Below, piece after piece: positions 1 to 3,322 of a stretch of DNA of 64,000 nucleotides. The DNA comes from Escherichia coli. Its GTDB lineage: Bacteria; Pseudomonadota; Gammaproteobacteria; Enterobacterales; Enterobacteriaceae. A model generated the notes under the pieces. It was not told the origin of the DNA and made no database searches. It saw only the letters and a program-made list of their open reading frames with translations. Every line of letters starts with the position of its first letter. Position 1 is the first letter of the stretch. Where the stretch lies: assembly GCF_045037415.1 (NCBI RefSeq), contig NZ_CP173438.1; one strand, given 5' to 3'. The translations under genes were made by a program, and so were the position numbers.

Positions 1-633
1 CTGCGCGCTGCATTGCGGGATTTGTCTGGTGGTTCTAAGGGGCAACTGGAAGCATTGTGTGAGCACCCACCGGCAGACAAAAACGCATACCCACGCAAAC
101 ATATTCACCGTGTGCAGCTGGAGGACCGGACCGTTGATGCTCTGGTTACGCCAGTTTACGCTCTGGAAAGTTTCAGCAGACGTCGCCCCGCGCCGCCGAT
201 GAGTGATTTTGAATTTGCTGATTCATCCTGGCGGCGTTCTGTGAACTCGCTGGATGCAAGTCAGCAAGCGTGGTTGCGTTATTGCTACGGTGGTAACCTG
301 GCATTCAAACACCAAACAGCTATTTGTGAGGCTGTCTGGAGTCGCTATAAAGGAAACATCCCCGCGTCAACTCAGAGAAAAGTAGTTAAGCGCCTGCTTT
401 CGTTGGTGTGGTTGTCCGTGCAGGCGGTCGCAGCAGCAAATAAACGCGAGGATTTTAAGGAGATGGCCGGATCTACCCTAGCAGGAATGCTGTCGGTTTC
501 TCGTTCCACCTGGTGCGAAACATACTCCCTGCACTGGGTAGGAATGAAAGAGGCGGTGAGAGCACTTGATGAAGTGGCACTTCTTGCAACTTTGCATCAT
601 TATCAGAACCATTTAGACGACGTTTGCGTATAA
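1..633 (+). CDS. hypothetical phage protein, 5' end outside window (frame open from position 1); sits where lambdoid phages encode the Q antiterminator but I cannot support that by sequence
   Basis: ORF track 13..633 (TTG at 13) with the same frame open to window start; immediately upstream of putative late promoter and lysis genes. Confidence 0.4.
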   Translation: MRAALRDLSGGSKGQLEALCEHPPADKNAYPRKHIHRVQLEDRTVDALVTPVYALESFSRRRPAPPMSDFEFADSSWRRSVNSLDASQQAWLRYCYGGNLAFKHQTAICEAVWSRYKGNIPASTQRKVVKRLLSLVWLSVQAVAAANKREDFKEMAGSTLAGMLSVSRSTWCETYSLHWVGMKEAVRALDEVALLATLHHYQNHLDDVCV

Positions 634-664
634 TGCTTGCAAAAACGAACAAAATAGGCCATAT

Positions 665-693
665 TTGACGCTAATTTGGTATGTTGCCAAATT
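665..693 (+). promoter_or_regulatory. putative late promoter resembling lambda pR' (-35 TTGACG, 17-nt spacer, -10 CAAATT)
   Basis: TTGACG at 665-670 and CAAATT at 688-693; lambda pR' has TTGACT/TAAATT as I recall. Confidence 0.3.
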
Positions 694-701
694 TCTAAGA
701 A

Positions 702-728
702 CCTCGCCACGGCGGGGTTTTGTCGTTT
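702..728 (+). terminator. putative tR'-like intrinsic terminator (short GC hairpin CCTCG..CGGGG followed by TTTTGTCGTTT)
   Basis: Hairpin plus T-rich tract read directly; located between the putative late promoter and the first lysis gene. Confidence 0.3.
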
Positions 729-745
729 CTGAATCAGGAAAAATC

Positions 746-1129
746 ATGTCTGAACCTCTAACCGCTGGCGTTGCTGCTGGCTCGGCGGGGGTGACGTTTG
801 CTGCGTTATTTCCTGAGGCAACACCTGCAGTGATGATCTGTGCGCTGGCAGGCGCAGCTCTCTATGTGTTGTCGTCCGGGCAGCATCGATTCTGGAAGCA
901 GGTTATTTTCGCACTCATTTCGTTTGTTGGCGGTGTGTATTGCGCTGAGACAGCGTCAGCCATCATTACCGGTATTCTGAACGCGGTGCTGAGTCACCTG
1001 AACCCTCCCGTAACAGTAAAAGTCTCTCCCGCCATTGGTGCACTGGTTGCATCAGTAATCAGCGTTACATCACTGTTGCGGATCATGTCACAAGCTCGTT
1101 TATGGAAATCAGATAAGGGGATGAAATAA
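746..1129 (+). CDS. putative holin / lysis membrane protein (127 aa, hydrophobic segments)
   Basis: ATG at 746 preceded by AGGAAA; ORF track frame 665..1129; hydrophobic TM-like stretches; first gene of lysis cassette. Confidence 0.4.
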   Translation: MSEPLTAGVAAGSAGVTFAALFPEATPAVMICALAGAALYVLSSGQHRFWKQVIFALISFVGGVYCAETASAIITGILNAVLSHLNPPVTVKVSPAIGALVASVISVTSLLRIMSQARLWKSDKGMK

Positions 1130-1401
1130 TGACCCTGCACTCTGTCCTCATCAATGCCAATGCAATTATTTGTCTGATGTTGGCACTACGGTTGATGTTT
1201 TTTCAAAAAACAGGCCGCTATCGTTTTTTCATCTCACTAACTGCTTACCTCGCGATTCTGTCTGCTGCGTGGATAGCCCTACGAATTTTTTACGGGAAAT
1301 ATACGCAGGTTGATCCCGCAGAGTTCTTTCTCAACCTCACCATCTGTATTGCTGTCTGGCGGGCACGAGGGAATATTTCAAAAATAACAGGAGACAGGTA
1401 A
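1129..1401 (+). CDS. putative holin-like small membrane protein (90 aa)
   Basis: ORF track; 2-3 hydrophobic helices; start overlaps stop of previous gene (ATGA). Confidence 0.4.
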   Translation: MTLHSVLINANAIICLMLALRLMFFQKTGRYRFFISLTAYLAILSAAWIALRIFYGKYTQVDPAEFFLNLTICIAVWRARGNISKITGDR

Positions 1402-1880
1402 TGACGGATCCTAAATGGCTAATCGAGGCTCGAAAAAACCTCGGCATTCGGGAAATGAAAGGGAAGCAACATGCTGCAGAAATTGTGCAGTACTGGAAAG
1501 ATATCAAACGCGGCGGCATTAAGGATGACGAAACACCGTGGTGCGCTGCTTTCACCGGGGCAATGCTGGAACGTGCGGGTATTCGCTCAACGCGTTTTGA
1601 GTCTGCGAATTCTTATCTCGATTGGGGTAATGAACTGAAGGAACCCGCCTATGGATGCATTGCTATTCTGTCTCGGTCTGGCGGTGGTCACGTCGGCTTT
1701 GTTGTCGGGAAAAATGCCGCCGGGGATTTAATGATTTTGGGGGGCAACCAGGCAGATGAAGTAAATATCAAAGCTTTTCCTCGTTCCCGCGTAACAGGCT
1801 ACCGCTGGCCAGCAGGTCAAACGGATGTTCCACAATCACTTCCATTGGTGAATGCTGAGAAATCTATCTCAGAAGCGTAG
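1401..1880 (+). CDS. putative endolysin (cysteine-peptidase/CHAP-like type found in place of lysozyme in some enterobacterial prophages)
   Basis: 159-aa ORF coupled to the two membrane proteins; sequence pattern recalled from TIGR02594-type prophage lysis proteins; position in cassette. Confidence 0.5.
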   Translation: MTDPKWLIEARKNLGIREMKGKQHAAEIVQYWKDIKRGGIKDDETPWCAAFTGAMLERAGIRSTRFESANSYLDWGNELKEPAYGCIAILSRSGGGHVGFVVGKNAAGDLMILGGNQADEVNIKAFPRSRVTGYRWPAGQTDVPQSLPLVNAEKSISEA

Positions 1881-1887
1881 GTAAAAC

Positions 1888-2082
1888 GTGAAAAAACTTC
1901 TCTTAGCTGTCGCGTTCTTCACGCTGGCAGGCTGCACACATTCGACATACACCGAAGCGACTCGCGCTGACGGCAGCAGTATTAAACACGTGATGATCGC
2001 GCCGGGTACGAAGATTACTACTGCGAACGGTGGTTGTATTGATTCAACCGGGGCAGAGGCTTCATGCCTTGGTGGAAAATAG
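1888..2082 (+). CDS. small lipoprotein (64 aa, lipobox LAGC), possible spanin-type lysis accessory protein
   Basis: Signal peptide MKKLLLAVAFFTLAGC; last gene of lysis cassette. Confidence 0.45.
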   Translation: MKKLLLAVAFFTLAGCTHSTYTEATRADGSSIKHVMIAPGTKITTANGGCIDSTGAEASCLGGK

Positions 2083-2141
2083 GGTAATTTACTTTAACGA
2101 GAGGCCGCCTTTTTGTTTTAAGGCGGCACACATTCAACAGA

Positions 2142-2402
2142 TTAAGGTAACTGATTTGACCATTTTGTTGCGCGCCAGTTGTTCTGAACCATAATCTTCT
2201 GAAGTATCTCATCTGAAGGCTCTGCTTCGCCGCTTAGCCATTCTCTTAAAGTTGAACAATTTAGATAAGAGGAGTTCGCACGATAAAAAGATACGATGGC
2301 GTCCTCTGATAACTTCTCAGGAAACTTTTTTGGGTCAGCTTCTTTTAATATTACGCTCATTAAGGCTTCAATTTTTTCTCTGTTCATTTTTTGCGTTCTC
2401 AT
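2142..2402 (-). CDS. hypothetical moron protein (81-86 aa) on opposite strand in AT-rich island; weak resemblance to DinI-family proteins
   Basis: ORF track; alternative ATG at 2387; low GC surroundings; antisense to late operon. Confidence 0.45.
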   Translation of the reverse strand: MRTQKMNREKIEALMSVILKEADPKKFPEKLSEDAIVSFYRANSSYLNCSTLREWLSGEAEPSDEILQKIMVQNNWRATKWSNQLP

Positions 2403-2755
2403 GGTTGTTGTTTTTCTGTAATGATATCAATAAGTTCAAGATATATACATATATGGAAAACTTGTTCGGTAGTCTATCGATACAGCACAAAAGGATGGCT
2501 CGCTGCCAAAGTGAAAGCTTACGCTGATAATCAGATACACAAAGCTGATGTATGCAAACAAGTACGCCGCGAGGCTACAGTTGAGTTTGATGAACCTGAT
2601 GCGAGCCCCTAATTCCTGTCCTGAAAGGGAGATAGCCCCCTGGTCGCGGGTCCTTTCCGAAATCCAAAACACCGAGGGTCGGTAGACGCGCAAAAACTCG
2701 CTCGTTTTTAGTATTTTTTCATTTTGGGTATTTCCGGTTCCGGTGAGGATTTTTA

Positions 2756-3322
2756 ATGGCAAGTCAGGCTGAGGTTGCAGCACATTTACTGCTATCTGAT
2801 CGTCGTCTGCGCGATCTCGCAAAACTTCCGGGAGCACCAGTCCCACAAGGACGTGGTGATTGGGAGCTAGACGCATGGCGCCATTTTTATATTCGTTATC
2901 TCCGGAGCAATAGACGCGACACAACTAGTAATGACGAACCGGAAGCGGGGGACAATTCTCCCGAAAAAAATCGCGAGCAGTGGCTGAAAAATGAGGAACG
3001 ACAGGAGCGAATCCTGATGGCACGAGTAAAACGCCGCATTCTCGCTAAACGCTACGCGCCAATTGAATTAATTAGCGTCGCTGTATCTCGCGTCGCCGTT
3101 GAATTACGTACCCGCGTCGAGTCGTGGCCACCACGCCTGAAAAAGGTCTGGCCGGAGATGCCGCAAGAGGCGAGCAGTGTATTACGAGAGGAGCTGGCGA
3201 TAGCCTTAAATGAGTTGTCAGACATACGAATCGACTTCAGCGATTACGATGTCAGCGATATCGAACGCGATCTCGACAGGGTTGAATCCCTTGCGCGTGA
3301 CGATACCGATGACGGGTGTTGA
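2756..3322 (+). CDS. terminase small subunit (Nu1-like)
   Basis: 188-aa ORF immediately upstream of and overlapping the large terminase; position and size. Confidence 0.6.
   Translation: MASQAEVAAHLLLSDRRLRDLAKLPGAPVPQGRGDWELDAWRHFYIRYLRSNRRDTTSNDEPEAGDNSPEKNREQWLKNEERQERILMARVKRRILAKRYAPIELISVAVSRVAVELRTRVESWPPRLKKVWPEMPQEASSVLREELAIALNELSDIRIDFSDYDVSDIERDLDRVESLARDDTDDGC

Follow-up and report, generated by a model that had tools for sequence, protein, structure and literature searches.

Does the opening segment of this DNA form a Q-dependent switch for prophage late genes and, if so, from which promoter and with which kind of Q protein would it work? The window, namely the whole analysed stretch of 64,000 nucleotides of Escherichia coli DNA, begins within an open reading frame that is followed by promoter-like hexamers, a hairpin, and a run of T residues ahead of the next gene. 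Inspection of the letters alone had led to the proposal of a pR'-like late promoter with a nearby terminator, an arrangement suited to a Q-dependent switch, in which the promoter was likened to lambda pR'. Comparison with related phages makes it highly likely that positions 1-745 hold, in a lambdoid prophage of E. coli, a switch for the late genes that is of the phage 82 type; the switch, the Q gene, and the terminator of that proposal are therefore retained, while the hexamers chosen probably have to be replaced.

The Q gene and its surroundings

The window is E. coli prophage DNA whose bases 1-1400 match phage vB_EcoM-705R4 (ON470624) at 100% identity, and the same prophage region is carried by 446 of 5426 complete E. 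coli genomes (~8%). The frame that opens the window (Table 1) is labelled 'bacteriophage antitermination protein Q' in RefSeq and is likewise present as Q in ON470624, the identical phage record, in which the full-length gene comprises 223 codons. The suggestion in the sequence-only reading that this partial frame could be Q was borne out by a profile search, in which it matched the Pfam family PF06323 (E = 1.9e-36; 126 bits; profile positions 11-206 of 220) above the gathering score, with no Pfam match to either PF03589 or PF06530. Q proteins are divided into three unrelated families, i.e., Q-lambda (PF03589), Q21 (PF06530), and Q82 (PF06323) (PMC9388147, PMC7171158). The window protein is thus placed in the same family as phage 82 Q, to which the complete 223-residue sequence is only 35% identical (E = 9e-39), and is unrelated to the lambda family. 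No model in NCBIfam matched the window Q, and searches of the PDB with the single Q sequence and with a 17-member profile returned no solved relative, in agreement with a 2022 statement that the Q82 family was structurally uncharacterised (PMC9388147).

Downstream of the promoter and terminator, a lysis and morphogenesis operon lies on the same strand as Q (Table 1). An 86-aa open reading frame on the minus strand (2142-2402) separates the lysis genes from the small terminase gene; labelled a hypothetical protein in ON470624, it could be a moron-like insertion within the late operon. Within the first holin gene, 34 nucleotides at 1022-1055 are 100% identical to a 'CRISPR'-annotated segment of E. 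coli ES6 (NZ_CM184335, 1108652-1108685), and an E. coli CRISPR spacer apparently targets the prophage holin gene at this site. At the end of the Q gene, a perfect TATAAT at 629-634 overlaps the stop codon; no usable -35 lies 16-18 bp upstream of it, and it was not reported by the consensus promoter scan.

Table 1. Features of the predicted late-gene switch and of the genes on either side, with column conservation in the module alignment
Feature	Position	Strand	Column conservation	Remarks
Q antiterminator gene, 3' 211 codons	1..633	+		Q82 family; stop TAA 631-633
-35 hexamer TTGCAA of the probable pR'	637-642	+	99.5%	assigned by homology and conservation
Promoter spacer AAACGAACAAAATAGGC, 17 bp	643-659	+		probable Q-binding element (QBE)
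-10 hexamer CATATT of the probable pR'	660-665	+	98.6%	
TTGACG, '-35' of the sequence-only reading	665-670	+	82% (76% identical to window)	last base of the assigned -10 plus positions about -6 to -2
11 bp holding the predicted start	666-676	+		
Predicted transcription start	672..673	+		+1 of 82 pR' falls on T672 in the alignment; nearest purine A673
Predicted sigma70-dependent pause element, extended -10-like TGGTATGTT (TGn + TATGTT)	677-685	+	94%	+6 to +14 of 82 pR'
GC-rich discriminator GCC	686-688	+	96%	+15 to +17 of 82 pR'
CAAATT, '-10' of the sequence-only reading	688-693	+	88% (81% identical to window)	discriminator C plus A/T-rich stretch before the pause
A/T-rich stretch AAATTTC	689-695	+		
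Predicted pause positions T696/A697	696-697	+		+25/+26 of 82 pR'
Terminator hairpin	698..721	+		10 pairs; G+C core 702-717; loop CACG 708-711
Terminator T-tract TTTTGTCGTTTCT	718..730	+		predicted RNA release ~724-728
First late gene, holin (PF16931)	746..1129	+		
3TM holin	1129-1401	+		after the first holin
TIGR02594/CHAP endolysin	1401-1880	+		
Small lipoprotein	1888-2082	+		then terminase subunits and portal genes

The late promoter and the elements behind it

The DNA downstream of other Q82-family genes was compared with the window, and included phage 434, 80 viral contigs whose Q is 47-100% identical to that of the window, and 80 contigs of the phage 82 clade. Among the latter, the locus L097 encodes a Q that is 100% identical to phage 82 Q; it reads attgcaaaactggattaa and then AAAGCATATATTTCATATAAATCTGATATTTTGCCAATGTTGTAC..., and positions 600-760 of the window read ...gtttgcgtaTAAtgcTTGCAAaaacgaacaaaataggcCATATTtgacgctaatTTGGTATGTTGCCaaatttctaagaacctcgccacggcggggttttgtcgtttctgaatcaggaaaaatcATG. 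With TTGCAA-17-TATATT as its promoter, L097 reproduces every published feature of 82 pR' (PMC5001585, PMC3326312), i.e., the AAA start, the extended -10-like TGATATTTT at +6 to +14, the GCC of +15 to +17, the A/T-rich stretch behind it, and the U of position +25. The window aligns with L097 free of gaps over the whole distance between the -35 and the pause site, as TTGCAA-17-CATATT-11-TGGTATGTT-GCC-7-T. The real pR' is probably, on this alignment, TTGCAA-17-CATATT at 637-665, which lies 28 bp upstream of the promoter chosen earlier; the original placement of the late promoter at 665-693 is not supported, as both phage 82 homology and conservation place it at 637-665.

Scoring of the sequence alone leaves the two candidate promoters tied at 8/12 against the sigma70 consensus, and a consensus promoter scan with a threshold of 9 lists neither of them; homology and conservation were therefore used to choose. 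Between the window and phage 82, the -35 TTGCAA, the 17-bp spacing, and the position of the -10 are all the same, as are the 11-bp gap to an extended -10-like pause element (TGnTAT..T), the GCC, the A/T-rich stretch, and the T at the pause, followed in both by an intrinsic terminator and then by the late genes. The two differ in the -10 hexamer itself (CATATT in the window and TATATT in phage 82), in the pause element (TGGTATGTT in the window and TGATATTTT in phage 82), and at the aligned +1, where the window has T and phage 82 has A. They also differ in the placement of the module, which begins 17 nt before the end of the Q gene in phage 82 and 3 nt after the Q stop codon in the window. Similarly, phage 434 (OL657226), whose Q belongs to the 82 clade and is ~35% identical to the window Q, has the same promoter geometry and carries an identical 13-mer, ATTTGGTATGTTG; its discriminator, however, is GTA instead of GCC, and its promoter overlaps the 3' end of Q, unlike that of the window. 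The hexamer TTGCAA, the 17-bp spacing, and the distance to the pause element recur after the phage 82-identical Q gene of L097 and after the phage 434 Q gene, and CATATT aligns with TATATT in the former and TATACT in the latter.

The RNA from 82 pR' begins with AAA (PMC5001585), which fixes +1 in L097 and hence the numbering of the gap-free aligned window. The predicted start at 672/673 sits 7-8 nt past the -10; since T672 stands at the aligned +1, the actual start could lie 1-2 nt away from it. Beyond the start, the 82 promoter has a pause element that resembles a -10 and includes the TG of an extended -10 (PMC5001585, PMC3326312); this element is nearer to consensus than that of lambda (PMC5001585). 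The GCC at +15 to +17 is needed for the 82 pause, whose further features are an A/T-rich segment and U at +25, with pausing at +25/+26 (PMC5001585; the TG motif also in PMC3326312). A full-text search of the literature for TGGTATGTT and its variants returned unrelated primer matches only. In addition, an inverted repeat, AATTTGGTA...TGCCAAATT at 673-693, could pair over 9 bp to give the predicted leader RNA a 5'-terminal hairpin; as a functional element, this hairpin (AAUUUGGUA/UGCCAAAUU) was rejected, being limited to the window's clade and eroded even there, and it is probably incidental.

Column conservation was taken from a MAFFT alignment of 61 distinct modules (Table 1), and the pattern TTGYRA-17-NANNNT-11-TGNTANNNY was found in 150 of 164 Q82-family loci. 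Distinct modules retain TTGCAA in 53/55, CATATT or TATATT in 51/55, GCC in 48/55, and T at '+25' in 53/55, although a few clades dominate the relatives and these counts are not independent events. The module lies at offsets of -21, -17, +3, +30, or +66 from the Q stop codon; with such a variable offset, what is conserved is the regulatory unit, not a reading frame.

A hairpin with a T-tract within about 40 nt had also been described in the sequence-only reading, and the pair was located at 698-730, the hairpin at 698-721 being the top-ranked terminator-like site within positions 1-3000. The RNA 672-735 folds with a computed energy of -21.4 kcal/mol (z = -3.64), and none of 200 shuffled sequences was as good. 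The consensus stem is retained in 27 distinct relatives, with double changes at two pairs; AACCCGC/GCGGGTT is near-invariant, the few pairs with one-sided or double changes still pair, and the window carries a variant, CCTCGC/GCGGGG, that includes a G-U pair. The tail GGGTTTTGTCGTTTT is common to the loci L030, L031, and L071, in which it stands behind different stems, and the phage 434 record has a terminator annotation at the matching site. The hairpin of the window begins ~2-6 nt past the pause site 696/697, and it likewise abuts the pause site in phage 434 (AAACCCGC...GGGTTTTTTTT) and most other loci, whereas in L097 it lies ~25 nt further downstream. Termination at these positions would be expected to release an RNA of ~52-56 nt. 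An Rfam search over the leader gave only chance-level matches to istR and RsmY (E = 0.6-0.9, far under the gathering scores).

Alternative readings of the hexamers and the hairpin

According to the sequence-only reading, TTGACG and CAAATT mimic lambda pR' and would themselves be the late promoter, which implies a start at ~700 and a Q that acts on a terminator 15-40 nt downstream. The likeness as such was correctly described: lambda pR' in NC_001416 is TTGACT-17-TAAATT, each hexamer is one base off, and the spacer at 671-687 is exactly 17 nt; furthermore, the proposed -35 matches 5/6 of the consensus, and CAAATT retains the key A (position 2) and T (position 6). However, sites matching at least 8/12 of the sigma70 consensus number 212 on the plus strand and 217 on the minus strand of the 64-kb window, or ~1 per 300 nt per strand, and TTGACG plus CAAATT alone is no better than chance. 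A start at ~700 would also put the hairpin (698/700-721) at the 5' extreme of the RNA, so that neither a sigma70-dependent pause nor the loading of Q would have an initial transcribed region in which to occur; every characterised Q, from three systems, loads while sigma70 holds the polymerase in a pause at +16 to +25 (PMC4914094, PMC5001585). Nor are these hexamers conserved where Q is 96-97% identical, as the first becomes TTAACG or TAAACG and the second CAAATA or CAAATC; TTGAAG, TTTAAG, or TTAGCG occurs at the first site in other relatives, and CAAAGT or CGAAAT is also found at the second. Moreover, the supposed 17-bp spacer contains the predicted start and the pause element, and TGnTATGTT-GCC, which outside the promoter is the best conserved part of the module, corresponds to the pause element defined by experiment in phage 82. 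The window Q, matching PF06323 only, stands outside the lambda family. That the late promoter lies at 665-693 is thus very improbable, and the resemblance of its hexamers to lambda is coincidental to the real promoter.

In its logic, the lambda switch is the same as that predicted for the window: a Q gene is followed by a late promoter for sigma70, whose spacer holds the QBE (putative in the window), and then by a sigma70-dependent promoter-proximal pause, a terminator, and lysis genes. The layouts differ, in that the lambda pause element lies at +1 to +6 with a pause at +16/17 and the window element at +6 to +14, and in that lambda tR' ends at ~+194 to give 6S RNA, whereas the window terminator starts at ~+27. 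No PF03589 protein was found, and the bases past the putative start at ~700 are the terminator stem itself; what was found, at the level of sequence, is a Q82 protein, a promoter with 17-bp spacing, the pause features, and a terminator before position 746. Judged by these elements, the module is of the phage 82 type, not the lambda type.

Both sets of hexamers might be used, in that pR' at 637-665 is Q-regulated while TTGACG is a '-35-like' element that sigma70 region 4 contacts in early elongation, as has been shown for lambda pR', or while TTGACG and CAAATT form a weak nested promoter with transcripts that end at the terminator. In both systems the last base of the -10 is shared with a TTGAC motif, TTGACG covering the last T of the assigned -10 just as TTGACT of lambda covers that of TAAATT (CATATTTGACGC vs TAAATTTGACTC); a -35-like element that induces a pause at +14/+15 has been reported for 82 pR' (PMC5001585, PMC3326312), and most relatives retain TTGAAG or TTGACG, with a column conservation of 76-82%. 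This dual use is nevertheless unlikely, given that the nearest relatives carry TTAACG or TAAACG at the site and that 9 bp separate TTGACG from the -10-like element, as against 3 bp in lambda, so that the lambda mechanism is not simply transferable. TTGACG at 665-670 may belong with the '-35-like' elements known at lambda and 82 pR', or it may have arisen by chance. Alternatively, the hairpin and T-tract could be the mere terminator of the early Q transcript, with the late genes driven from elsewhere; the hairpin lies 65 nt past the Q stop codon and would halt unmodified read-through from upstream. Yet the terminator moves with the promoter-pause module and not with the Q stop codon (offsets -21 to +66), and the first late gene begins 16 nt past the T-tract with no promoter-like site between them. 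A role in ending the early Q transcript is, in any case, compatible with a role in the late switch, and that the hairpin has the former role alone is barely credible.

The putative Q-binding element and the predicted operation of the switch

The QBE of phage 82 lies between the -35 and the -10, within -31 to +30 (PMC4914094), and the spacer of the window is the probable Q-binding element, an assignment made because of this published position, the unusually high conservation of the spacer, and the way in which spacer families track the Q clade. Conservation of the spacer in the alignment is 89% across loci with a Q identity of no more than 50-60%; the spacer reads ..GAACAAAATAGGC or ..GCAACAAAATAAGC in the window's clade, compared with AACTGGATTAAAAAGCA in the 82 clade. 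By a base-by-base count, the spacers of the window and of phage 82 have 9/17 bases in common and differ at 8/17, so the exact QBE is not readable from them.

On the minus strand, positions 639-652 (TTGTTCGTTTTTGC) hold TTGY-N6-TTGY within the -35 and spacer of pR', which is the CII-binding consensus in the annotation of phage 434; in phage 434, the annotated CII site and the -35 of paQ likewise overlap the -35 of pR'. On the other strand, the same bases read GCAA-N6-ACAA and are kept across the clade. A CII-dependent antisense promoter (paQ-like) at 652-639 is no more than a lead, as a reading of the sequence revealed no acceptable minus-strand -10 at the right distance and the window does not include the immunity region. 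GCAA-N6-ACAA could serve as both a QBE and a CII-type activator site and thus bring a lysogeny regulator to the late promoter itself. It is rather doubtful that either this dual site operates or TTGACG works as a '-35-like' element for sigma70 region 4 (or Q) in the paused Q82-type complex. If true, either would constitute a regulatory layer undescribed for the Q82 family.

The operation of the switch is inferred from its homology to phage 82. RNA polymerase with sigma70 would start at pR', at about 672/673, whereupon the retained sigma70 would re-bind TGGTATGTT, and the GCC and the A/T-rich stretch would help to keep the complex in a scrunched, paused state in which the RNA is ~25 nt long and has its 3' end at T696/A697. 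Without Q, the polymerase would escape and terminate at the hairpin and T-tract, leaving an RNA of ~52-56 nt and silent lysis and morphogenesis genes. Once accumulated, Q would bind the spacer element and engage the paused complex with the help of NusA. It would then ride with the polymerase and block the action of the terminator hairpin, and transcription would continue through the holin gene, which starts at 746, to the genes behind it. NusA assists Q at phage 82, where the pause is at +25 (PMC4914094), and Q82 with NusA is described as shielding ~10 extra nucleotides of emerging RNA in a passage of PMC4914094 that cites earlier work.

The module of the window is an uncharacterised member of a well-known kind of element and is unsurprising to a specialist; its value lies in correct annotation, as the promoter and the pause element are unannotated in all phage records carrying the module and the terminator is annotated only in phage 434. 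The signature TTGCAA-17-yATAtT-11-TGnTATnTT-GCC-7-T followed by a terminator could locate the late promoters of Q82-family prophages, and the pairing of spacer variants with Q clades would be useful in defining the QBE of Q82, the one Q family that still lacks a solved structure. The terminator directly behind the loading pause in most members also offers a test bed for the speed with which Q82 confers termination resistance.

The phage 82-type module is not universal in the Q82 family. Gifsy-1 (L177, 1179-1300) and the viral contig L096 have a different leader, in which a G+C-rich hairpin region precedes the terminator ACACGCCGCGAGCGTGTTTTTT, and the linear-plasmid prophages N15 (L178) and PY54 (L179) have no promoter-pause-terminator module directly after Q. 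Within the phage 82 clade (L097 compared with L156 and its relatives), Q proteins that are ~89-100% identical are followed by at least three versions of the leader and terminator, namely the L097 type, the 434 type, whose terminator directly adjoins the pause site, and a third that runs into GGGTTGACTATCC...; such varied leaders behind near-identical Q genes point to recombination just after the pause element.
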